A stretch of 17,077 nt of DNA from Chthonomonadales bacterium (GCA_037443035.1 JBBIPC010000037.1:1-17077); one strand, 5' to 3'. Positions 4,305 to 15,826 are shown, numbered from the stretch's first letter. Program-made: numbers and translations. The notes: generated by a model not told the origin, from the letters alone.

Positions 4305-7300
4305 ATGATGAGCCGGCTGATTCTACTGGCGCTCGCAGCCATGGCTGCGCCGGCAGTGCACGCGCAGGGGTGGAGCCATGCCTTCCGGGACTTCCCGGCA
4401 GAGGCCGTGGAGGGAAAGGTCGTGCGGCTGAAGGTCGCCTACACCGCACCGGAACCGGTGAAGCTCCATGTGGAGCTAAAGGACACCTCAAACGTGGTGC
4501 ACGTCGGAGCGGTCCAAGAAGTGACCGGAACGGGCGTAGCCCAGTTCGCCATGATGGTGCCCGTGGGGAAGTTCGGCGGGCAGATGCTGGCGGCGGTCTG
4601 GATGGGTGAGGACTGGCGCGACCCGAAGGCGGCCATCGTCCACGCTGGGCCGATACCTGTCTACACGGTGGAAGAGGGGCGCAGGCTGCAGGAGGCTACC
4701 AAGCGCGGAGCAGCGCTACGGAAGCGTCTGGGGCTGGACGCACGACGACCTGTCGTAGCAGTTCTGTCCGGGGGGTGGGCTGGACGGAGCGCCAACCTTG
4801 CGGAGCAATACCGCGGAGCGCTCGCGGCCGCAGGGATGCGATGCATCACGCTCGGTCCCGACGAAGTAGCGACACCGGGTGTGCTGGATGCCGGCGCGAT
4901 CCGTCTCCTCGTCGTACCGCAAGGTCAGGTGTTTCCGGGGGAGGCGGTCGTCTTGCTGGACCGCTTCCTGAAACGGCGTGGCCATCTGATAATCCTGGGC
5001 GCACCAGCGTTCGATCGGTTGGTGCGCCAGGTGCAGGGGCCACGTGGCACGGAGTGGCTGGACGACAGACAACTTGCCGACCGCCTGCGTAGACTGCCGA
5101 AGACCCGGACACTGCTGCAAATGGAAGCCTTGCAGAAGACGTCGTGGCAGCGTTCATCCAACGACCTCGCAGCGCCGACGAGTTGGTCCATGGAACGGGA
5201 GAGCGGTATTGGGCCCGTACTGCGCCACGACATTCGTGGCCTGTCGGGTTGGGATACCCTCGAGGCGCAACTGGACCAGCCTGCAGCCGAGGGAGAGAAC
5301 GTCATCCTGTTCCGAGCGCGTGGTCAAGGGCCTACCAGTGCACTCGCTGTGGAACTGCGCGAACGGGACGGCTCCCGCTGGATCGCTGTCGTACCGTTGA
5401 CGGACCGATGGCAGACGTATGCCTTAACGCCCTCGGAGTTCAAGCTCTGGGACCCCGACCGAACCTCCGGACGCGGTGCCCATGGCGATCATGTGAACCT
5501 GCAAGCGATCTCCGCGGTTTCAGTGGGGCTCGCTTTCACTCACACAAGCGTGCCTGGCGGCGACCATACCTACTGGTTCGCCGACCTGGGTTCGGCGAGG
5601 GGGCCGGAAGTGCGCAGCTTCGCGGTACCCGTACTCGACACGATCTCGCCCGAATACAAGCTCTATCCGGTCCGTGGCGCCAAGCGCGTAGACGACTCGC
5701 TTGGCAGAGCGCTGGTCGGCGCACAGGCTCCGGCACTCCCCCGTAACGTTTTGTCCACACATCCCAGGCCAACAGGCACCGGCTTCGACAAGCAGAGAAA
5801 GTACAGGTGGATACCTCTGCTCCAGGTAACGGGCGAGCCGGGAGTCATGGGCACCATCGCCACCCTCGTGCACCATCTCCAAGGCCCGTACGCAGGAGGC
5901 AGATGGGCTTCGTTCACTGTTCCCGATACCGATTGGTACGCTAGGCCCGATGTGGTGCGCTATGTGGTGGCCGTGGCCAAGCGGATGCTGAACCCTGTGC
6001 TTCTCGCCGAGGCAGGTGCGCAGTATTACGGGTATTTCCCTGACGAGAGGCCCGTGCTGGGCGCTCGGGCCACCCATGCGAGCATGGCCGGACTCACGGT
6101 TCGTTTCGTGGTCGAGGACCTCCAGTACGGCAGCTCGCCTCGCACGCCGAAGGTTCTATTCCAGCGGTCAGCGAAGCTCCAGCGGCAAGGCGAGGAGGTC
6201 GTCGCCCGCGTGACATGGACGCCGAAACGATTGTGGGCCAGTCGGTATCGGGTGACGGCAACGCTCCTGGAGAACGGCAAGGCTGTAGACGTCTTGGAGC
6301 ACGAGATCACCGTGCGGCACCCTCTTGGTGCGCCAGGCGCCGCCGGACGCCCCAAGTGGCGCGTAACCGTCGAGGATGGCCAGTTCTCGGCGGACGGCAA
6401 GCCGTGGTATCCGCATGGGGTGAACTACATGCCCTCTTCGGGCATTGCCGCAGAAGACGGTCACTACTTCGAGCAATGGCTCTCCTCGGAATCCTATGAC
6501 CCCGTAGTAATCGAGAGGGACCTACGCAGAGTCCGGCACATCGGCTTCAACATGGTCAGCGCGTTCATCTACACCGAGAGCACCCACAATCACAACCTGG
6601 TGGATTTCCTGAACCGTTGCGATGCCCATGGTCTGCGAGTCAACCTCTCGCTCCGTCCGGGGACTCCGCTGGATTTCCAGTGGCCCGGCATCGGCGAGAT
6701 CATCAAGGTGAACCGGCTTGCCGATGATACGACGGTGTTCGCTTACGATCTGGCTTGGGAGCCAGCGTGGGGCTACCGGGATCAAAGACGCCAATGGGAT
6801 GCTGAGTGGCGAGAATGGATTCGGCAGCGATATGGCTCCATCGAGAATGCGGAGAAGGACTGGGGTGAGCGTGCGCCGCGGGAGAACGGGGAAGTCGTAG
6901 GGCCGTCGGATGCAGATGTGACGGCGTCCAGCACCATTCCGCACGTGGTCGCTGCGTACAGGCGCTTCCAGGACGACTTTCTGAGCCGTAAGCACATGGA
7001 GGCGCGGCAGAAGATCCGCACCCTCGACAAGTTCCACCTCCTCTCCTTCCGCATGTCCATCGCCGGCGATCCTACCTGCGGCCCGGCCATCATGCCTTAC
7101 GACTTCATGGGTCTGGCGCGGAGCATGGACTTCATGGCTCCGGAGGGCTACGGTCGCATCGGCGACAAGGAGCGTGTCAAGCCAGGCTGGTTCACCGTTG
7201 CCTACGCGAGATATGCAGCGCCGAGCAAGCCCGTGCTATGGGCCGAGTTCGGCTACTCCATGTGGAACAAAGGTGCGCCACCTGCGACACCGAAGGGGCT

Positions 7301-8138
7301 GAGCTTCGCCGACGCTTTCGACCGGCGGCATTACCTGCCTGGTACCATCGCCTTCACGGAGCAGTTCTACCGTGACTTCTACGAAATGGCACTCGCGAGT
7401 GAGTCGGCGGGCACGGTCTGCTGGTGGTATCCAGGCGGTTTCCGAGTCGGTGAGAACAGCGACTTCGGCATCATCAATCCCGACGGAACCTGGCGGGGGC
7501 TTACCCACATCATCGCCGAGTACGCGCACAAGTTCGCGAACCGGCCGAAGCCGCGTTACGCTGATGCAACCATCCTGATAGACAGGGACAAGCACCCAGA
7601 CGGCATCTACGGCATCTACAACGAAGTGAAGGACGAGTTCTGGAGGCTCGTGAGCGAGGGCCACTTCCCTGCGCTCGTGGATGAGGCCGAGGGCACCCTG
7701 TCCCGAACGTGTCCGACAACGGCCGTGGGCAACGTGCCGTACAACGGCTCGAACCCGCCAAAGTACCTCGACGCCGAGTTCGAGTATGTGCGATTGCGGA
7801 ATATCGCAGGCGCGTGGATCGAAGTGCCGTATGGTGGGGGCGAGGTCCGGCTGAACAAGAAGGAATCGGTCATCATCGAGGTCCTGCCAGGCAACAACGG
7901 TCGCGTCGGCTGGACTTCCGTTGGCTACCCGGACTGCGTAGGGCTGCGACTGTCGCTAGGCCTCGCCAAGAGCTTCATCCCATTGCCGAGTATGGCCGTG
8001 CCACCCATGGGTACCGCCCGTCCTGTCAGCGCGTCACTTGGCGATCTTCAAGGAATCGATGAGATAGTGCTACAAATGGAAGCCAACGGCCGCTGCCGGT
8101 TCGGGGAAGTGCGGAGGATCCGGATCCTACCGGAATAG
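4305..8138 (+). CDS. Large secreted multidomain glycoside hydrolase, clan GH-A-like (GH5/GH42-like barrel) with CBM-like and GATase-like modules (1277 aa)
   Basis: Signal peptide (MMSRLILLALAAMAAPAVHA/Q). Barrel motifs GQFSADGKPWYPHGVNY, IERDLRRVRHIGFNMV, AYDLAWEP (putative acid/base E819), PVLWAEFG (putative nucleophile E981) and WWYPGG..DFGI. CBM-like segment FRARG..AVELRERDGSRW..WQTYAL. Substrate cannot be determined. Confidence 0.75.
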   Translation: MMSRLILLALAAMAAPAVHAQGWSHAFRDFPAEAVEGKVVRLKVAYTAPEPVKLHVELKDTSNVVHVGAVQEVTGTGVAQFAMMVPVGKFGGQMLAAVWMGEDWRDPKAAIVHAGPIPVYTVEEGRRLQEATKRGAALRKRLGLDARRPVVAVLSGGWAGRSANLAEQYRGALAAAGMRCITLGPDEVATPGVLDAGAIRLLVVPQGQVFPGEAVVLLDRFLKRRGHLIILGAPAFDRLVRQVQGPRGTEWLDDRQLADRLRRLPKTRTLLQMEALQKTSWQRSSNDLAAPTSWSMERESGIGPVLRHDIRGLSGWDTLEAQLDQPAAEGENVILFRARGQGPTSALAVELRERDGSRWIAVVPLTDRWQTYALTPSEFKLWDPDRTSGRGAHGDHVNLQAISAVSVGLAFTHTSVPGGDHTYWFADLGSARGPEVRSFAVPVLDTISPEYKLYPVRGAKRVDDSLGRALVGAQAPALPRNVLSTHPRPTGTGFDKQRKYRWIPLLQVTGEPGVMGTIATLVHHLQGPYAGGRWASFTVPDTDWYARPDVVRYVVAVAKRMLNPVLLAEAGAQYYGYFPDERPVLGARATHASMAGLTVRFVVEDLQYGSSPRTPKVLFQRSAKLQRQGEEVVARVTWTPKRLWASRYRVTATLLENGKAVDVLEHEITVRHPLGAPGAAGRPKWRVTVEDGQFSADGKPWYPHGVNYMPSSGIAAEDGHYFEQWLSSESYDPVVIERDLRRVRHIGFNMVSAFIYTESTHNHNLVDFLNRCDAHGLRVNLSLRPGTPLDFQWPGIGEIIKVNRLADDTTVFAYDLAWEPAWGYRDQRRQWDAEWREWIRQRYGSIENAEKDWGERAPRENGEVVGPSDADVTASSTIPHVVAAYRRFQDDFLSRKHMEARQKIRTLDKFHLLSFRMSIAGDPTCGPAIMPYDFMGLARSMDFMAPEGYGRIGDKERVKPGWFTVAYARYAAPSKPVLWAEFGYSMWNKGAPPATPKGLSFADAFDRRHYLPGTIAFTEQFYRDFYEMALASESAGTVCWWYPGGFRVGENSDFGIINPDGTWRGLTHIIAEYAHKFANRPKPRYADATILIDRDKHPDGIYGIYNEVKDEFWRLVSEGHFPALVDEAEGTLSRTCPTTAVGNVPYNGSNPPKYLDAEFEYVRLRNIAGAWIEVPYGGGEVRLNKKESVIIEVLPGNNGRVGWTSVGYPDCVGLRLSLGLAKSFIPLPSMAVPPMGTARPVSASLGDLQGIDEIVLQMEANGRCRFGEVRRIRILPE

Positions 8139-8157: not shown

Positions 8158-9036
8158 TTAAGCGGTGTAAGGCTCCAGTGCTGCAACACGGACAATGAGG
8201 ACGGTGACGTTGTCGTGGCCGCCTCTGGCGCAGGCCAGTTCCACAAGTTGGCGACAGGCTTCCGAAGGGGCCTGATCGCGGGCCACTTGGAGCAGTTCGG
8301 AGTCGGCAACGTGGCCCGTTAGCCCATCGCTGCAAAGAAGCCATGTGTCCAAGGGCAGCGTCTCCGCAGCGTACAGGTCGGGTTCGATCTCCGGCTGAGT
8401 GCCGATGCACCGGGTGATGATATTCCGATAGGGCGACCGCTCCGCCTCTTCCTGCGACATGGCGCCGCTACGGACCTGCTCGGCGACCCAGGAATGGTCG
8501 TCGGTGATCTGCAGTATCGTCTCGCCGCGGATGAGGTACGCCCGGCTGTCGCCGATATGTGCGACGATGGCCTTATCCTCGACGAGTGCTAGAGCGGTCA
8601 GGGTGGTGCCCATGCCCGATCTACCCGGAATGGTCGCGGCCACCTGGAAGACGTGGTCATTGGCAGAGCGGAGCGCGGCGAGCAGTGCATCCCCAGGATC
8701 TTCGCTGTCGGAGGAGTAGTAGGCTGCAAGCGCCTTCTTGATGGCCAGCTCGGAAGCGATCTGACCGGCAGCGTGCCCTCCCATTCCGTCGGCCACCATG
8801 TAGAGACTGCCGCGAACGGCCAGGGTGGGCGGATCGTCGGGCTCGTAGAACTCCGCCTTGTCCTCGTTGTTTTCCCTCACGCATCCGAGATCGGTCTTCA
8901 TGCCGATGCGGGTGATTGGCACAACCCGTGGGGAGCGGCCCTCGGCGCGCCTCCAGCCTCTGACGAGCTCCTGCCGATCGAAGCGGGCCGTGATTTCGTC
9001 CTGTTGCGTCGCGTCCCGCCATTCGACCTCACTCAT
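8158..9036 (-). CDS. PP2C/PPM-type Ser/Thr protein phosphatase (Stp1/PrpC-like; 292 aa)
   Basis: TDLGCVRENNED, VADGMGGHAAGQIAS, GMGTT, AHIGDSRAY, DHS, RNIITR, LLCSDGL, GGHDNVT. About 40-aa N-terminal extension; start overlaps the upstream stop (ATGAGTGA). Confidence 0.95.
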   Translation of the reverse strand: MSEVEWRDATQQDEITARFDRQELVRGWRRAEGRSPRVVPITRIGMKTDLGCVRENNEDKAEFYEPDDPPTLAVRGSLYMVADGMGGHAAGQIASELAIKKALAAYYSSDSEDPGDALLAALRSANDHVFQVAATIPGRSGMGTTLTALALVEDKAIVAHIGDSRAYLIRGETILQITDDHSWVAEQVRSGAMSQEEAERSPYRNIITRCIGTQPEIEPDLYAAETLPLDTWLLCSDGLTGHVADSELLQVARDQAPSEACRQLVELACARGGHDNVTVLIVRVAALEPYTA

Positions 9037-10018
9037 CCGGCATCACCTCGTCCTGCGTCGGCTCGGTAAACGCGTCCGAGACTGCTTGCGCCTCCGCCTC
9101 GTCTTCCGCTGCAGACTCTGCCGACGGCATGCTGACTACGTATTTGCCCTGGCCGATGGCGACCTCGTCTCCTTCCGCAAGGGCGATGGGTGTGTTCGGG
9201 GCCAGACGCTGACCGTTGACGAAGGTACCGTTGGTGCTACCAAGGTCCGTGATTTCGAGCTTGCCGTCGGAGGCTGTGATGCTGGCATGTCGGCCAGAGA
9301 CATACGGATCCTCGGCGACCACGTGATCGCTCGGTGGACGTCGGCCGATGGTCATGGTGCCGGCATAGACGACGATATCCTGCCCATGTCCGCTCGCTGC
9401 GAGCAGATAGGCTACGGCAGGACCGGCTGGCTCGGTACGAACGGGTGCCGTCGGCTGTGTGTCCTGGTCTGCCTGCGGCGGCATGGCTTGGGTTACATCC
9501 GCAGGGAGACCTGAGTCGGGACCATCGAGCCGGAGAGTGACGTTGCCCAGTTGCAGCAGGGAGCCAGCTCGGATCGCCTGGGGAATGTTGGCAGGGATGC
9601 CGGCGCCATCCAGGCGCGTACCGTTGGTGCTGCCCAGATCCGTGATCGTCAGTCCAGTGTCACTCACCGTCACGACGGCATGACGGCGCGAAACGGTGCT
9701 ATCCACGAGCAGCACATCGCCACCTTCGCGGCCGATAAGGTTCTCCCCCGTGCGCAGCGAGTAACGACGGCCCGTCCTGTCGTCCACGAGGCTGAACGGA
9801 CATCCGCCCGTGTCCGCTTCGTCGGCGGGTGTACCTGGCTGAGAGGAGAGGAGGAATCCACACTCGGAGCAATAGGTCTCGAGTGCCGGATTCACCGTAC
9901 TGCAGACGGGGCAGACCACCGTACCTCCCATCTGGGTCGCTTCAGGGGCGACAGCGACCCCTGTAGCTGCTGCGACCTGTTCGTTGCCGAGGACGCGGGT
10001 CTTCTCGGGCTCTTCCAT
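9029..10018 (-). CDS. Zinc-ribbon + tandem FHA domain protein (329 aa)
   Basis: CPVC-x10-CSEC; FHA1 IGR..VSRRHA..GSTNGT; FHA2 IGR..VSGRHA..GSTNGT; acidic C-terminal tail; AGGAGA RBS. Confidence 0.92.
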   Translation of the reverse strand: MEEPEKTRVLGNEQVAAATGVAVAPEATQMGGTVVCPVCSTVNPALETYCSECGFLLSSQPGTPADEADTGGCPFSLVDDRTGRRYSLRTGENLIGREGGDVLLVDSTVSRRHAVVTVSDTGLTITDLGSTNGTRLDGAGIPANIPQAIRAGSLLQLGNVTLRLDGPDSGLPADVTQAMPPQADQDTQPTAPVRTEPAGPAVAYLLAASGHGQDIVVYAGTMTIGRRPPSDHVVAEDPYVSGRHASITASDGKLEITDLGSTNGTFVNGQRLAPNTPIALAEGDEVAIGQGKYVVSMPSAESAAEDEAEAQAVSDAFTEPTQDEVMPDE

Positions 10019-10030
10019 GGTGATCGTCTC

Positions 10031-11371
10031 CTATTCCTTCCGCTTGCCTTGGTCGAGGTCGTAGATCGTGCCGATGAGCGTCTTCTCCACGCTGCCTCCC
10101 TGCTGAATGGCTTCCATGGCCATGGTGACCTCGCGTGCTTCTTCATCCCTTCCGGCCTGCATCAGGACGGTGCGCGTTCGCTGGAGCTCCTGTAGAGCAC
10201 CCATGGCCGTGAGCTGCTGCGTTCGCATGCCCATCATCGTCTTCTCCAGGTTGCGAGAGGCCAGGTGGACCTCCAGCTCCTGCCTGACGATGGGATCCCG
10301 GTGGGTCTCGACGAGAGAACGATCCGGTGTGAACTCGATAACCGCATCGCCCGTGAGCATCTCCGTCCGTCCGGTCATGGCGTCATCGTAGGTGACTTCC
10401 ACCCTGGCGAAGCGGTACGTGCCGGGAACATGCTTGTCGAACTCCCACTCGGACAGACTCGCCACGGCGCTGCCCCGTTCGACGTCTGCAAGGGTATAGT
10501 CCACGATCCGCTGGCCGAACTGCGGCGCCGCGGCTCCGTAGACATAGCGGCACTGGACGCCCCTGGGCGCGTGCAGGCGCACACGAACGTTCTTGGCCAC
10601 GATGGTCATCAACGTCTCGAGCTCACGGCGAAAGACCTCGGGGATGAGGCTGGGTTGGGCGATGTAGTAGTAATTGCCGCCACTCCGCCTGGCAATGCCC
10701 GCCATGAGTTCCTCGTTGTACTCCGATCCGAAGCCGAGGGCGGTGATCGTGATGCCCGCCTGCTTCTGCTGCGCCACCTGCTGCACGATAGCGCCGAAGT
10801 CCTTGATGCCCGCCGTGGGTTCGCCGTCGGTAAGAAGGAGCACACGGTTCAGGTAGCCGGGAAGCCGCACGGACGCGACTTGCATGCAGCCGGTCATCAT
10901 GCCGTCGTAAAGGTTCGTCGTATTGCCAGGTTGGATGCGGGCGATGTGCTCCTTGATGAGCGCTTTGTTGACCACGCGGCGAGCGGGCATGACCACCTCG
11001 ACCTGCTCCTCGAAGGTGACGATGGAGAGGACGTCTGAGGGTTCGAGCAGGTCCACCACGTAGCTGCACGCCCGCTTGACGAACTCCAGCGGCTCTCCTT
11101 CCATGGACCCAGAGCGGTCAATGACGAGGGAGATGTTGAGAGGCATGCGCCTCCCGATTGCGTTCGCAGGGGCTCTCAGCATGAGGAGCAGATGCTCGCG
11201 TGACACTCCCCCGGCCCAGGCGTAGCGGCTACCTGGCACGACGTCCAGTTCCAAAGCCCTGAGGGGTACCCCAGTGGCGGTTCTGCCGACGTCCGGAACA
11301 CCTCCCGTCACGACGGTCCGGTTCGGGTCCGCCGGTAAGGGTTGACCTAGCTGCTGCGTCTTGTCTTCCAT
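10031..11371 (-). CDS. von Willebrand factor A (vWA) domain protein, YfbK-like (446 aa)
   Basis: PLNISLVIDRSGSM (MIDAS DxSxS), GNTTNL, LLLTDG, ITALGFG..YNEELM..IA..SGGNYYY. No signal peptide; GGAG RBS. Confidence 0.92.
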   Translation of the reverse strand: MEDKTQQLGQPLPADPNRTVVTGGVPDVGRTATGVPLRALELDVVPGSRYAWAGGVSREHLLLMLRAPANAIGRRMPLNISLVIDRSGSMEGEPLEFVKRACSYVVDLLEPSDVLSIVTFEEQVEVVMPARRVVNKALIKEHIARIQPGNTTNLYDGMMTGCMQVASVRLPGYLNRVLLLTDGEPTAGIKDFGAIVQQVAQQKQAGITITALGFGSEYNEELMAGIARRSGGNYYYIAQPSLIPEVFRRELETLMTIVAKNVRVRLHAPRGVQCRYVYGAAAPQFGQRIVDYTLADVERGSAVASLSEWEFDKHVPGTYRFARVEVTYDDAMTGRTEMLTGDAVIEFTPDRSLVETHRDPIVRQELEVHLASRNLEKTMMGMRTQQLTAMGALQELQRTRTVLMQAGRDEEAREVTMAMEAIQQGGSVEKTLIGTIYDLDQGKRKE

Positions 11372-11403
11372 AGCTTGTGACTCCGCAAGGCCGACGAGTT
11401 GGC

Positions 11404-12924
11404 CTATTCGTAGCGATAACTGCCCGCGCCCATCTGAATAATGTCACCCAGGGCGAGCGGCTGAGTCTGAATACGTACTCCGTTGACGAAGGTGCCGTTG
11501 GAGGATCCCTCGTCCACCAGTACATGTACTCCGGCTTGTTCTTCGATACGGGCGTGTCGCCGAGACACAGACGGGTCCTGCGCCAGGACAATGTCCCGCG
11601 CCGCATCACGACCGATGGACACGACCGGCAGGGAGAGCGCAAAGCTCTGGCCTGCATGAGGACCGTCCAGCGCGACGAGACGACTTCCCTGAGCGGCAAG
11701 AGGAACTGCGCCAAGAGGACCTGCGGTGTAGGTCGGCGCCAAACCCGCCTCTGCGACCGTGGCGCCAGGACCGGCCGACATCGCTGGTGGAGGCACGGGT
11801 GAAGGGCCACCACTCCCGCCCGTGGCGGCGCCGACCGTGCAAAGGCAGTTTCCTGCGGCGTCCTTCGGTGCACCGCAGAACTGGCAGAGGTTGCTCGGCA
11901 CGCTTAGGTGACCTGGCTGCTGTTTGCCGGTTGCCAGGTCCTTGCGCGGGCTGGCAACACGGGAGGCCGTGGCCTTCTCACGGAACAAGAGACGGACCTG
12001 GCCCAGTTGGATCATGTCGCCGTCCTTCAAGACCGCCTTCTGCACGCGCTGGCCATTGACCATGACGCCCACAGGCGCGCCACCATCGAGCAGGACGTGA
12101 CGATTGTTCTCCATGGAGATGGCAGCGTGCTGGGGGGCCAGCGAAGGATCGGCGAAGAGGGGTATGTCGGCTCGTTCGTCTCTCCCAAGGATGGTCAAGG
12201 GGCGCGAGATGATGTAGTCGCGTCCTTCGTTGCGTCCGACGAGGACACGCACCCATGCCTGCTTCATCATCTCCTCGACGAGGCCGATGAAGAAGCCGGT
12301 CAGTGTGCCGATTGCCGTGAAGCCCACAGCCCGACTCGGTCCGCCTATCTCGATGATCTGCGGACCGCTAACGGAGGCCGAAGCCATGCCCTGGAGAGGC
12401 TGAGAGAACAGGGTGGCCACCAGGTCGAACGCGAAGCCTCCAACGAACCCGCCGAGGAGACCTCCGACCAAGCCATGAACCGCTCGCTTGCCAGAAAGGG
12501 TTGCCGCACCAGCGGCCAGTCCGGGGAACGCTCCGAGGAAGGTCCATCCCAGGGCCCGCGCGAGCACAGCGTGGGTGAAGTCCAGCAGACCGCGGCTCTG
12601 CGCGAGCAAGAAGGGGTCCTTGCCGAACAGGGCGGCATTGTAGACAATGCTCCCGACGTAGACGCCGAACATGCCACCGACGGTGCCAATGGCGGCACCG
12701 CGAATGGTGCCTCGCAAGAGCGTGCGTGCCGAGCCCGTCACAACGCCCTCGACCGCACCGATTCCGATGCCGAGCATGACGCCCACCAGCACGCCGAGCT
12801 TGAGCATTTCGGGCATGGGTGGTGTCAAGACAGGGTCGTGGACGACGAGGCGTTCCTGCAGCAAGAATCCGAGAAAGCCTGCCGCAGCGCCGAAGAGCGT
12901 GCTGACGAGGATGCGAGAACGCAT
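11404..12924 (-). CDS. Polytopic Gly-rich membrane protein with FHA, Cys motif and FHA (506 aa)
   Basis: About 6 hydrophobic GxxxG-rich segments in aa 1-216, FHA-like domain (LGRD..APQH), CQFC-x9-CLC, Pro/Ala/Gly linker, canonical FHA (IGRD..VSRRHA..SSNGT). GAGGT RBS. Confidence 0.88.
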   Translation of the reverse strand: MRSRILVSTLFGAAAGFLGFLLQERLVVHDPVLTPPMPEMLKLGVLVGVMLGIGIGAVEGVVTGSARTLLRGTIRGAAIGTVGGMFGVYVGSIVYNAALFGKDPFLLAQSRGLLDFTHAVLARALGWTFLGAFPGLAAGAATLSGKRAVHGLVGGLLGGFVGGFAFDLVATLFSQPLQGMASASVSGPQIIEIGGPSRAVGFTAIGTLTGFFIGLVEEMMKQAWVRVLVGRNEGRDYIISRPLTILGRDERADIPLFADPSLAPQHAAISMENNRHVLLDGGAPVGVMVNGQRVQKAVLKDGDMIQLGQVRLLFREKATASRVASPRKDLATGKQQPGHLSVPSNLCQFCGAPKDAAGNCLCTVGAATGGSGGPSPVPPPAMSAGPGATVAEAGLAPTYTAGPLGAVPLAAQGSRLVALDGPHAGQSFALSLPVVSIGRDAARDIVLAQDPSVSRRHARIEEQAGVHVLVDEGSSNGTFVNGVRIQTQPLALGDIIQMGAGSYRYE

Positions 12925-12932
12925 GGCCGTGG

Positions 12933-14309
12933 CTAGACCTCGAACCGGAACCGTGTGTTGCCGATCTGGACCTCGTCTCCAGGACGGATGGGCTGGGAGC
13001 CAGTTATCCTGACGCCATTGACGAACGTGCCATTGGATGACCCCTCATCGGTTAGCACGTAGGCGCCAGCCTCGGCACGCAGGGTGGCATGCCTGCGCGA
13101 GACGGTGTTGTCGTTGGGAAGCGCGATGGTGTTCGTCGGCTCCCGCCCGATGGTCGCCGTTCCGTCAATGGTGAAGATAGCACCCGAATAGACTCCAACC
13201 GTGCCGATGAGGCGCGGCTGAGCGACACCTACCGCCGACGACGGTGCCGTGACCACGCCATCGCTGGGCAGTGCCGAGCAAGCGCAGTTACCGGCCGCAT
13301 CCTTCTTCTGGCCACAGAACTGGCATAGCGTGGGATCGGAGACGACCGGCGGCGGAGGTGCGTTCGGCTGCCATGGTGTGTTGGAGGCAGACTCGGGTTG
13401 CGGACCGCTGACCTCGATGCCTACCTTCTTGAGAGTGGCTGCCATGCCTCCGGAGAGGGACCAGCGATAGAGAAGATAGATGGCGCCGGCGCCAATGACG
13501 AGACCGAGCAGTGTGCCGAGCCAGCCGGCGAGTCCGCCACCGCCCCCCATCGTTCCAGCTGACGGAGAGGAGGAACCGCCAGCCTGCTCCCTCGATTTGC
13601 GGACATCACCGGCTTCGGACTCGGCAGAAGGAGAGGTCTGTTCCACCGTCGGAACGCGATTGGCCACTGCGACGCTGATCACCAGAGGGCCGGGAGCCTG
13701 GCCTCCAGCGATATCAACGTCCTGCGCTTGTGTAAACCCATCGCCATAGACAACGGTTACACGAGCCCGACCCATGGGAATATCTTCGAATACCGCGATG
13801 CCATCCTTTGCCGGGTCCAGAATGCGGGTCACCGAGGCTTCGCCACGAGGCTCCAGCGTCACCTTGGCCACGGAGACGGGCTTGCCCTGGTAGGTCACCT
13901 TGACGTCCAGTTCGCGGACGTGATCGAAGTCGGTGGCCTTCAGATCCAGAACGCCGTTACGCGGACCGTTGGGACCGGCCAGAGGACGAATGGCCGAAAT
14001 GCCCGATCGCACGTTATCCACGGCGATACGTGCCTTGCTGCCAAGCTCTGTGGGTTTGTACTTGACCTTGAACGTACGGTCCAAGAAGCGGATGGGGAGC
14101 TGAGCAGGCTGTTTGGCGTCGGCGGAAGGCAGAAAGCGCACGAGGTGCTCCCCTTCGTCAGGCACGCTAATGGTCAGCTCGACCTCAGCGCTGCCAGGGT
14201 TCGGCCTGGCCTGCTGGGCAACCGCCACGGCCGGCACCCATGCGAGGGCTGCTGCCGTGGCTAGGATGAACCATTGCGGTTGCATCCTGAGTTGCGGAGT
14301 TCGTTTCAT
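12933..14309 (-). CDS. Signal-peptide, single-pass membrane protein with extracytoplasmic beta-rich domains, cytoplasmic Cys motif and FHA (458 aa)
   Basis: Start placed at ATG 14309 (AAGGAG RBS; ATGA overlap with the nnr stop) rather than the ORF-track start 14546. Signal peptide FILATAAALAWVPAVAVA/Q, TM WLGTLLGLVIGAGAIYLLY, CQFC-x9-CAC, FHA IGRE..VSRRHA..SSNGT. Confidence 0.87.
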   Translation of the reverse strand: MKRTPQLRMQPQWFILATAAALAWVPAVAVAQQARPNPGSAEVELTISVPDEGEHLVRFLPSADAKQPAQLPIRFLDRTFKVKYKPTELGSKARIAVDNVRSGISAIRPLAGPNGPRNGVLDLKATDFDHVRELDVKVTYQGKPVSVAKVTLEPRGEASVTRILDPAKDGIAVFEDIPMGRARVTVVYGDGFTQAQDVDIAGGQAPGPLVISVAVANRVPTVEQTSPSAESEAGDVRKSREQAGGSSSPSAGTMGGGGGLAGWLGTLLGLVIGAGAIYLLYRWSLSGGMAATLKKVGIEVSGPQPESASNTPWQPNAPPPPVVSDPTLCQFCGQKKDAAGNCACSALPSDGVVTAPSSAVGVAQPRLIGTVGVYSGAIFTIDGTATIGREPTNTIALPNDNTVSRRHATLRAEAGAYVLTDEGSSNGTFVNGVRITGSQPIRPGDEVQIGNTRFRFEV

Positions 14310-15826
14310 TGACCAAGCTCCTTCAATGCGTCCGCCAGACTCTCGGCGATGTCGCCGGCGATTAGACCGTGCTCGCCTCGGCAGTTCCTCGCAATATCGC
14401 CAGCGAGACCGTGGACGAAAGCCGCCAAGCATGCCGCTTCGTAAGGTGGTAGGCCCTGGGCGAGAAGAGACCCCACGACGCCTGTAAGGACATCGCCGCT
14501 TCCACCCGTAGCCATACCAGGATTGCCCATGGTTACGATGGTGCACGAGTCTTGCTGGGGGCTAGCCGTGCTATGACAGATTACGGTGCCAGCACCCTTG
14601 AGAATCGCGATGCAGCCGTATCTGTCAGCGAGTTGCCGGGCCGCGCTCAGCCGGTTGCTCTGTACAGTAGCGGTGTCGGTGCCGAGCAGGTGGGCGCATT
14701 CACCTGGATGAGGGGTCATGACCGTCGGTGCACGGCGGCTCCTGACGATAGCCTCGTGCCCTGCGATGGCCCACAGGCCGTCAGCATCCATGACCAGCGG
14801 AAGGGTGCATTGGGCGACACACTGCCGCGCGAACGCCGCCGCCTGCGGTGTCCGACCCAACCCTGGCCCCAGGCAGCAAACGGTTGCGCGTTCGAGGGAG
14901 GCTGCCAGTCCGTCCATGCTCTCGGCTGCCAGGGTGCCGTGGTCTTCGGCTAACGGGACGGTCATGGCTTCGGGAATATTAGCGGCGACGATGGGCTGGA
15001 CAGATCGAGGAGTTGCCACTGTGACCAGGCCGGCGCCCGATCGAAGCGCTCCCCGTGCGGCCAAGGAGGGGGCTCCGGACATACCCGCAGATCCCCCGAT
15101 AATCAGGACGTGTCCGAAAGCACCCTTGTGTGCATCCCGAGGACGTCTCGGGAGTGCAACGCGTGCCTCGGTCATGCCGTACCAACGGCAACAGGTAGGG
15201 ACGCCCGTTCGGGACCAATCCATGCCGATGGCGTCTACCACCACACGCCCGGCGAACGCGGCTCCGGGGTAAAGCAAGAGACCCGGCTTGGGATAGCCGA
15301 ACGTCACTGTCACATCGGCTCGGACAACCTCACCTGGCACCGTGCCACTGTCCGCGTCCACGCCCGACGGCACATCCACGGCGACCACAGGCAATCCCGA
15401 GGCGCGGATCTCGCGAATGGCCTGGGCGATCGCTCCCCGCGGCGCACCGGACGACCCCGTCCCCAGTAGCGCATCCACCAGCACGGCTTCGCCAGACCGC
15501 GATGACGGCTCGAGACCCAGGGAGCGTAGAATGCGCAGGTTTGTCAGGGCATCGCCCTGTATGCGTTCAGGATCGCCCAGGATCTCGTAGGTGACGCCAT
15601 GCCCGCTGAGCAGGAGATGTCGTGCCGCTACGAAGCCGTCTCCGCCGTTGTTGCCGGTACCGCAGAGGAGATGAACGCGTCGCAGGTCAGTGTGCCCGCA
15701 AAGCGCCATCACTTCGCGTGCTACAGCAGCGCCGGCGTTCTCCATGAGGACGACGCCAGGGACGCCGAGCTTCTCGATGGCGACACGGTCCATTTCTCTC
15801 ATCTGCGCGGTAGTGGCAATATGCAT
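14306..15826 (-). CDS. nnr: Bifunctional NAD(P)H-hydrate epimerase/dehydratase (NnrE-NnrD fusion, YjeF; 506 aa)
   Basis: MRxxD..LMENAG, CGTGNNGGDG, VDALLGTG, AVDVPSG (epimerase); HKGAFG..IIGGS..GA, GPGLG, DADGL, TPHPGE, LKGAGT, MATGGSGDVLTG (dehydratase). Confidence 0.96.
   Translation of the reverse strand: MHIATTAQMREMDRVAIEKLGVPGVVLMENAGAAVAREVMALCGHTDLRRVHLLCGTGNNGGDGFVAARHLLLSGHGVTYEILGDPERIQGDALTNLRILRSLGLEPSSRSGEAVLVDALLGTGSSGAPRGAIAQAIREIRASGLPVVAVDVPSGVDADSGTVPGEVVRADVTVTFGYPKPGLLLYPGAAFAGRVVVDAIGMDWSRTGVPTCCRWYGMTEARVALPRRPRDAHKGAFGHVLIIGGSAGMSGAPSLAARGALRSGAGLVTVATPRSVQPIVAANIPEAMTVPLAEDHGTLAAESMDGLAASLERATVCCLGPGLGRTPQAAAFARQCVAQCTLPLVMDADGLWAIAGHEAIVRSRRAPTVMTPHPGECAHLLGTDTATVQSNRLSAARQLADRYGCIAILKGAGTVICHSTASPQQDSCTIVTMGNPGMATGGSGDVLTGVVGSLLAQGLPPYEAACLAAFVHGLAGDIARNCRGEHGLIAGDIAESLADALKELGQ

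Follow-up and report, generated by a model that had tools for sequence, protein, structure and literature searches.

What is the function of five closely packed genes that join FHA, vWA and PP2C domains in a member of the Chthonomonadales? The genes occupy positions 8158–14309 of a 17,077-nucleotide (nt) stretch of DNA (the window), which is the entire contig C37; the genome measures 3.76 Mb and is 100% complete. An initial annotation regarded them as a candidate trans-envelope phosphothreonine (pThr) signalling or scaffold system of an undescribed kind. The first part of this claim stands, since synteny, co-occurrence and a predicted contact between the products of genes 3 and 4 point to a conserved, membrane-anchored FHA/vWA/PP2C module. 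The second does not, since the core matches the ArnA/ArnB proteins of Sulfolobus by sequence and fold and a vWA/kinase/FHA/PP2C operon is known in Deinococcus. Our analysis indicates that the locus is probably an ArnA/ArnB-type pThr switch tied to the inner membrane.

As annotated, all five open reading frames (ORFs) lie on the minus strand; from gene 1 to gene 5 the spacings are 8, 32, 12 and −8 nt, the last being an overlap, and these values were confirmed by coordinates. Pfam matches above cut-off comprise five FHA domains (one in gene 1 and two each in genes 2 and 4), one vWA domain and one PP2C domain. When the whole genome was searched with Pfam, 5/5 FHA matches fell in the five-gene locus.

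Gene 3 encodes an ArnB-type vWA hub

The product of gene 3 (10031–11371, minus strand, 446 amino acids) is an ArnB-type protein in which a β-sandwich is split by a vWA domain and followed by a C-terminal helical bundle. Its best match in the Protein Data Bank by phmmer is 8S05 (residues 79–428, E 1.2e-12), one of the ArnA/ArnB structures of Sulfolobus acidocaldarius. The structural model (predicted local distance difference test (pLDDT) 84) has the same arrangement of domains, and Foldseek ranked 8S05 first (E 9.5e-27, TM-scores 0.67/0.77, 414 columns, 19% identity), followed by 4FX5 and 5A8J and then by ITIH1 and Sec23/24 chains. All three domains of the ArnB fold are present in the gene 3 model. 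The vWA domain's MIDAS (metal-ion-dependent adhesion site) is intact, as had been annotated: D85, S87, S89, T151 and D182 are all present, and they are conserved in 71, 71, 68, 69 and 68 of 71 homologues, respectively.

The helical bundle (residues about 360–441; 10049–10294, minus strand) is the equivalent of the regulatory helical bundle of ArnB. It carries conserved threonines T378, T384, T399, T431 and T435, retained in 71, 67, 70, 70 and 61 of the same 71 homologues. Close relatives have a median of 6 bundle threonines, generic vWA matches one of 3.

Residues 1–35 of gene 3 (11267–11371, minus strand) form a disordered N-terminal tail (pLDDT <50) with Thr motifs at T5, T19 and T31, which are predicted phospho-acceptors. 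In 115 tails cut from 119 database homologues there are on average 5 threonines, with a Thr:Ser count of 580:122. The pattern [RK]-T-x(1,2)-[MLIV], which was picked after the alignment had been viewed, occurs 309 times in these tails vs. 16 ± 4 (maximum 26) in 200 shuffles. The comparison of tails with those of generic vWA proteins (12/17 vs. 29/103) is a poor control, because many generic "tails" are signal peptides or folded domains. A weight matrix built from gene 3 tails also gives high scores to two bundle residues, T378 and T384, and to T28 of gene 4, which suggests, at the level of sequence, that the gene 3 tail, the gene 3 bundle and the gene 4 Thr sites share one kinase consensus.

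The Sec23/24 chains in the fold search (query TM-score about 0.5) bring up a different explanation, a structural coat, in which a vWA/zinc-finger pair resembling the Sec23/24 core would be anchored by transmembrane (TM) FHA proteins and polymerise as a phospho-gated, membrane-shaping scaffold. Multivalent Thr tails and tandem FHA domains fit cross-linking, and the Anabaena FraH-Alr4359 complex is described as co-purifying with the membrane-bending CURT1 protein at cell poles (PMC9035410). We consider such a coat very unlikely, since the likeness is one of fold only, at 10–12% identity, and neither a small GTPase nor a gelsolin domain nor a curvature protein came up in the loci.

Gene 4 is ArnA-like and is predicted to contact gene 3

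The counterpart of ArnA in the proposed switch is the product of gene 4 (9029–10018, minus strand, 329 amino acids), which by its sequence is ArnA-like, with a zinc ribbon and two FHA domains that follow a Thr-motif tail. The RanBP2-like zinc ribbon lies at 9860–9913 (minus strand, Cys pattern C36–C53), and two canonical FHA domains detected by Pfam, with intact GR/SxxH/NG residues, lie at 9545–9739 and 9152–9352 (minus strand). Zinc-ribbon matches of gene 4 are below cut-off, yet its Cys pattern is conserved: CxxC-CxxC is complete in 50/60 homologues and three of the four Cys are found in 60/60. The four canonical FHA classes of the locus retain GR/SxxH/NG in 44/44, 48/48, 60/60 and 59–60/60 homologues. 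In gene 4, Thr motifs ahead of the ribbon and within the linker number 116 vs. 37 ± 6 in shuffles. An N-terminal J-like domain is present in 10/60 gene 4 homologues (L024:1634-2728 and nine other loci), with an HPD string in one ORF.

A complex of gene 3 (residues 38–446), the gene 4 ribbon (residues 26–64) and Zn was predicted with an interface score (ipSAE) of 0.77 vs. 0.00 for the highest-scoring of three controls. The ipSAE mark applied was reached by 116/157 solved and 2/215 mismatched pairs, a calibration that holds only roughly here. The runs agree on at least 97% of contacts, and the pLDDT of the partner is at least 84. Confident contacts to the ribbon are made by gene 3 residues 269–271, 315–321 and 342–349, all in the β-sandwich, and the interface residues R320 and Y/F319 are each conserved in 71/71 homologues. 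We thus predict from modelling that the gene 4 zinc ribbon binds the gene 3 β-sandwich. Two natural fusions, P0282 and P0303, which occur among the best 150 representatives at 50% identity, join a Thr-tail, a vWA domain and two FHA domains in one chain. Their FHA domains match gene 4 profiles best, and neither protein has a CxxC, as expected if fusion does away with the need for a ribbon tether.

The phosphatase and a displaced kinase

Gene 5 (8158–9036, minus strand, 292 amino acids) encodes a PP2C/PPM Ser/Thr phosphatase that passes the NCBIfam Stp1/IreP cut-off (NF033484, 244.5 vs. 230 bits); its metal-binding residues D59, D83, D237 and D275 are present in 51/51 homologues. The genome has two Hanks kinases, both outside the window: a PASTA kinase on contig C7 and a kinase-TM-TPR protein on contig C14 (G000:C14:14242-16107) whose catalytic motifs are intact. 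In many relatives the vWA, Ser/Thr kinase, FHA and PP2C genes are all adjacent; the kinase is displaced in this genome. Kinases of the relatives' loci have, in 32/32 cases, a catalytic loop and a TM segment followed by about 200 residues.

Co-occurrence was analyzed in a phylum-wide sample of 151 Armatimonadota genomes. A gene 3 orthologue (E ≤ 1e-90, eight genomes with weaker matches being uncounted) was found in 86/151 genomes, and an orthologue of the C14 kinase (E ≤ 1e-85, one weaker match being dropped) likewise in 86/151; both are present in 85 genomes and neither in 64/151. In 46/85 genomes no more than 7 kb separates the kinase gene from gene 3. Given this co-occurrence and proximity in relatives, the C14 kinase is likely the sixth member of the system. 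The initial annotation missed this cognate kinase, which, with its TPR domain, is itself a candidate sensor. The PASTA kinase is not favoured as the cognate enzyme: no close match to it came up in the loci, where full-length kinases of the C14 type score 300–560 bits. A few locus ORFs labelled KIN7 score 112–131 bits.

Several further ORFs were seen near the kinase and phosphatase genes. After the C14 kinase there is a 362-amino-acid ORF without a Pfam match (L038:10168-11253 in G000:C14), a possible further member, with a similar-looking ORF in several relatives. In one locus (L027:2938-7453) a second kinase/PP2C/FHA cassette adjoins the core on the opposite strand. In 5/37 and 1/40 loci of the two sets described below, the gene for a B-box and RDD membrane protein (L033:2479-3114) separates gene 4 from the PP2C gene. 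A KptA/Tpt1 RNA 2'-phosphotransferase gene stands between the PP2C and kinase genes at L015:14904-15563 and in other Chthonomonadales loci; KptA/Tpt1 was rejected as a core part, since BLASTP found none in this genome and it occurs in only 15/37 and 3/40 loci.

The presence of vWA, PP2C and Ser/Thr kinase genes, the three domain classes of the TerY-P triad (PMC10542128), had led to a comparison with TerY-P and defence loci, and the locus could be pictured as such a stress or anti-phage triad with FHA accessories. The comparison is weak. The PP2C gives a weak match to PADLOC model PDC-M21C (E 1e-11), but genes 1–4 match 0/5027 PADLOC models at E ≤ 0.01 and PADLOC finds no system; for gene 3, the absence of a PADLOC match has to be read with the presence of a TerY model in that library being unconfirmed. 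As described in PMC10542128, the triad is without FHA proteins, its kinase is fused C-terminally to a zinc ribbon/OB fold, and it is associated with loci for ter, restriction and defence. In contrast, the kinase studied here carries TM and TPR regions and no zinc ribbon or OB fold, the vWA protein is of the long ArnB type, and the locus behaves as core genome: it is single-copy, is retained in whole families (e.g., 9/9, 12/12 and 13/13), adjoins a housekeeping gene, with the inspected neighbours being of housekeeping type, and has a GC content of 63.7%, near the 61.8% of the genome. Among 72,556 plasmids there was no full-length relative, only partial, distant matches, and 79 loci contained 0 MoxR genes. 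Because of single-copy, clade-wide retention and the lack of a PADLOC system, defence of the TerY-P type is disfavoured, and we regard it as very unlikely. The vWA-MoxR systems are defined by an adjacent MoxR AAA+ ATPase; assignment to these was rejected on the same count of MoxR genes, two of which are found elsewhere in the genome.

Genes 1 and 2 encode membrane-anchored FHA proteins

The ArnA/ArnB-type core is accompanied by two membrane proteins. Gene 1 (12933–14309, minus strand, 458 amino acids) encodes a signal-peptide-like N-terminus, two β-sandwich ectodomains, a linker, a single TM segment (residues about 260–285), a CxxCG-x-D-x-G-x-CxC motif and a canonical FHA domain. In the model (pLDDT 84.7) the two-domain β ectodomain is well predicted, and 43/44 homologues have both the signal-like stretch and the TM segment. 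The second ectodomain is CarboxypepD_reg/prealbumin-like (Z about 10 to small β-sandwich domains), and PF13620 is carried by 35/120 of the gene 1 homologues listed. The first sub-domain gave no clear fold match in structure searches with the whole protein as the query, because FHA matches filled the lists. An Atlas search with the gene 1 ectodomain gave a best score of 0.81, which is a lead only.

Gene 2 (11404–12924, minus strand, 506 amino acids) encodes a Gly-rich domain of five to six TM segments, a degenerate FHA domain (12001–12192, minus strand), a Cys4 motif and a canonical FHA domain (11428–11622, minus strand). It had been annotated with about six TM segments; hydropathy gives five segments at a threshold of 1.5 or above, and a sixth, Gly-rich helix (residues about 116–142) is not called, though it is plausible from sequence. 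The count of five FHA domains in the initial annotation agrees with Pfam; however, the first FHA of gene 2 retains the Ser of SxxH in 3/48 homologues and the Asn in 0/48, and the locus therefore has four canonical pThr readers rather than five. The Cys motifs of both proteins could be placed. That of gene 1 (C329, C332, C342 and C344; 13278–13325, minus strand) is a predicted Zn site found in 24/44 homologues, and the paralogous motif of gene 2 (C347–C362; 11839–11886, minus strand) is found in 30/48 homologues by pattern and in 32/48 by alignment column.

The unit formed by the TM and degenerate FHA domains of gene 2 is also found in Planctomycetota clusters, and look-alikes of the TM domain occur in Cyanobacteriota. 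Proteins of this type were seen at other sites (L090–L099), mostly in genomes without a gene 3 orthologue, and some adjoin double-zinc-ribbon-FHA genes or other kinases. In one Atlas cluster of gene 2-type proteins, fusions to an E2 (ubiquitin-conjugating) domain make up 11%. Between genes 2 and 3, the loci L007, L008, L011, L021 and L041 have an additional FHA ORF that stands alone and measures 127–189 codons.

Conservation of the cluster

In the first set of 37 loci, in which all named relatives are Armatimonadota, the full five-gene order was found in 17/37 loci, many ending at contig edges, with the kinase gene next in 13/17. The second set comprised 40 loci, picked from 94 matching genomes so as to cover the phylum's families; the two sets share at least two loci. 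Here the complete order was found in 14 loci (15 with L043, whose gene 1 ORF is short), with the kinase downstream in 10/14. Six loci have the order nnr-1-2-vWA, 16 have vWA-4-PP2C with or without the kinase and without genes 1 and 2 (V4PK 12, V4P 3 and V4rP 1), and the rest are partial. It follows from these split orders that the cluster consists of two blocks, with the vWA gene going with either. Gene 1 still adjoins gene 2 in 9/10 split genomes examined, and in 5/5 tested genomes whose gene 3 has no adjoining gene 4, gene 4 was found elsewhere. Of the 86 genomes with gene 3, 80 carry a gene 2-type protein (96/104 matching genomes were used, eight weak or partial ones being left out). Thus, as to whether the five genes stay together across genomes, their order is conserved in much of Armatimonadota, though the cluster often splits.

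The splits may also be read as two separate modules in one operon, a membrane pair (genes 1 and 2, with nnr) and a soluble core (genes 3–5 and the kinase), which have no physical link. This would account for the 16/40 loci with vWA-4-PP2C alone, for the pairing of genes 1 and 2 away from the core in 9/10 split genomes and for gene 2-type proteins in 16 genomes without a vWA orthologue and in other phyla. It fits less well with the vWA gene joining either block (nnr-1-2-vWA in 6/40) and with gene 2 being kept in so many of the gene 3 genomes. The pairwise divergence of gene 2 tracks that of gene 3 (Spearman 0.86), which shared descent also predicts. Finally, in a genome-wide scan for clustered Thr motifs eight ORFs passed, none convincing besides gene 3, which leaves genes 3 and 4 as the apparent FHA ligands. 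We judge two unlinked modules to be unlikely.

A sixth co-oriented gene, nnrE/D (NAD(P)HX epimerase/dehydratase; 14306–15826, minus strand), overlaps gene 1 by 4 nt and is probably co-transcribed with the five genes. Counts in a promoter and terminator scan were inside the shuffle range (2 vs. 1.3 ± 1.2 and 6 vs. 3.9 ± 2.0). The nnr gene precedes gene 1 in 24/25 and 21/21 loci of the two sets and in 8/9 split loci. This link would suit metabolic control of the GarA/OdhI kind, in which unphosphorylated FHA proteins bind an enzyme and tail phosphorylation leads to self-binding and switches them off, with nnrE/D pointing to redox or NAD(P)H-damage control. In line with it, the gene 4 Thr tail precedes its FHA domains, GarA/OdhI FHA domains are among the top structural matches to the gene 1 FHA, and deletions of arnA and arnB shift metabolic enzymes (PMC12852372). 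However, scores to the OdhI model are well under cut-off (58–98 vs. 200 bits), likeness of the FHA fold is generic, the nnr link may be mere transcriptional hitch-hiking, and the ArnB hub and the ectodomains are left unexplained. Metabolic control of this kind is, in our view, quite improbable.

Proposed mechanism and output

In Sulfolobus, according to PMC12852372, ArnC phosphorylates threonines of the ArnB bundle, which the ArnA FHA domain then binds. If the locus works as an ArnA/ArnB-type switch, the zinc ribbon of gene 4 would, at rest, be loosely tethered to the gene 3 β-sandwich, as predicted by modelling. By analogy with ArnAB, a cue from outside may be sensed by the kinase TPR region and/or the gene 1 β-sandwich ectodomain and raise kinase activity; the C14 kinase would then phosphorylate threonines of the gene 3 tail and bundle at many sites, creating several FHA docking sites. 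Gene 4 would clamp the phosphorylated hub, and genes 1 and 2 would draw it to the membrane, giving a multivalent assembly in which the degenerate FHA of gene 2 may be a phosphate-independent structural or docking domain. The gene 5 PP2C would reset the switch.

Several observations weigh against this interpretation. The complex of gene 3 with the ribbon may have passed owing to its likeness to the solved ArnAB complex. Moreover, 8S05 is described (PMC12852372) as having contacts through the β1-β2 loop, the α5 linker and the helical bundle, and the predicted ribbon contacts exclude those of the β1-β2 loop and bundle; the predicted patch is therefore adjacent to that in the crystal, not identical to it. 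The Cys4 motif of genes 1 and 2 is lineage-limited. Gene 2 lies within 4 kb of gene 3 in 44/80 genomes (contig breaks included), has no full match in 6/86 gene 3 genomes and, as noted above, has relatives in 16 genomes without gene 3. Since the genomes are related and orthology cut-offs were set at score gaps after the lists had been viewed, co-occurrence is a pattern rather than a set of independent trials or a statistical test. Flagellin does not track the system (9/16 genomes with it and 7/17 without).

As to the output, the analogy with Sulfolobus, where the archaellum and Aap pili are concerned, and with Anabaena, whose FraH-Alr4359 complex is found at the cell poles, leads us to favour tentatively, with less than even confidence, control of the cell envelope or of a surface programme, for instance type IV pili or the organisation of membranes; defence and direct control of enzymes rank lower. 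The flagellum is not favoured as an output, since flagellin shows no co-occurrence with the system and none is present in this genome. PilT is found in 33/33 genomes and is therefore uninformative. A more far-reaching version of the same scheme, which we consider unlikely, is a complete trans-envelope module with an ArnAB/Sec23-24-type core, in which an outside cue would trigger Thr phosphorylation of the tailed hub at many sites; the hub would then be cross-linked by the tandem-FHA adaptor and two TM FHA anchors into a reversible membrane lattice. Such a bacterial proto-coat, gated by phosphorylation, would organise or remodel the inner membrane.

Other features of the window

A 1277-amino-acid, secreted-looking protein is encoded at 4305–8138; its gene converges on the operon, ends 19 nt from gene 5, and has only a weak GH42 match (E 4e-5). 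At the contig start an element of about 220 nt occurs twice (1–145 and 326–545), with 30-nt tandem units and a common 3' part. The repeats sit just beyond the end of an acetate-CoA ligase/GNAT gene and have the look of intergenic repeats.

Comparison with known systems

Among actinobacterial systems, GarA/OdhI and FhaA/FhaB share with the locus the FHA fold, a Thr tail before the FHA domain and a membrane-anchored FHA protein, but all scores of the locus to the corresponding NCBIfam models are below cut-off. To our knowledge, these systems have no vWA hub.

FraH of Anabaena combines a zinc ribbon with an FHA domain. The FraH-Alr4359-Alr4119 complex, with kinase Alr0548 and Alr0547 (PMC9035410), resembles our system, by description, in that an FHA-type protein binds a partner phosphorylated on Thr (T362, T410), a kinase co-purifies and the localisation is membrane-related; it differs in acting in heterocyst development. 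A primer-based look-up of Alr4359 gave 0 matches.

A closer parallel is the operon DRA0331-DRA0334 of Deinococcus radiodurans (bioRxiv 10.64898/2026.01.23.701218), which likewise combines a vWA protein, a membrane Ser/Thr kinase, an FHA protein and a PP2C, and in which kinase and phosphatase are reported to act antagonistically via FHA docking. The comparison is by description: DRA0334 has a KI-FHA domain whereas gene 5 is a bare PP2C of 292 amino acids, and the operon has one FHA protein vs. three at our locus, with no TM-FHA receptors described in the accessible text. Two vWA matches on Deinococcus plasmids that were examined lie in unrelated contexts.

The closest system is ArnA/ArnB of S. 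acidocaldarius (8S05, 5A8I, 5A8J; PMC12852372, PMC6509490). Both systems have a three-domain vWA hub with a MIDAS and a Thr-rich bundle, an adjoining partner with a RanBP2-like zinc ribbon and FHA, a Hanks kinase with TPR (ArnC) and a ribbon-hub contact, which in our case is predicted. They differ in that gene 4 has two FHA domains, not one; the hub of our locus has a Thr-repeat tail, whereas ArnB as described has none; the locus adds two membrane FHA proteins, with no archaellum; and its kinase is in the membrane, with the TPR region after the TM segment and predicted to lie outside. A further point that counts against the assignment is the phosphatase, PP2C/PPM here and PPP-type PP2A in Sulfolobus, which weakens strict membership of the ArnA/ArnB group and leaves the claim that the locus works like it unaffected. 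PMC12852372 presents the downstream action of ArnA/ArnB in Sulfolobus as unresolved and homologues beyond that lineage as mostly not phosphorylation-driven. In the literature searched, in which subscription journals are largely uncovered, we found no description of this locus in Armatimonadota.

The locus is thus likely a bacterial variant of the ArnA/ArnB-type (and DRA0331-0334-type) pThr module, itself a known kind, distinguished by the Thr-repeat tail, the tandem-FHA adaptor, the two membrane readers and the TM-TPR kinase. It is probably the main pThr-reading pathway in over half of this little-studied phylum (86/151 sampled genomes). In the bacterial version the Thr-rich bundle is retained, an explicit Thr-repeat tail is gained, and a single kinase and a single phosphatase stand out. 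Since the system holds every FHA domain and one of the two Hanks kinases of the genome, it forms a small closed circuit that could be rebuilt in vitro from six proteins.

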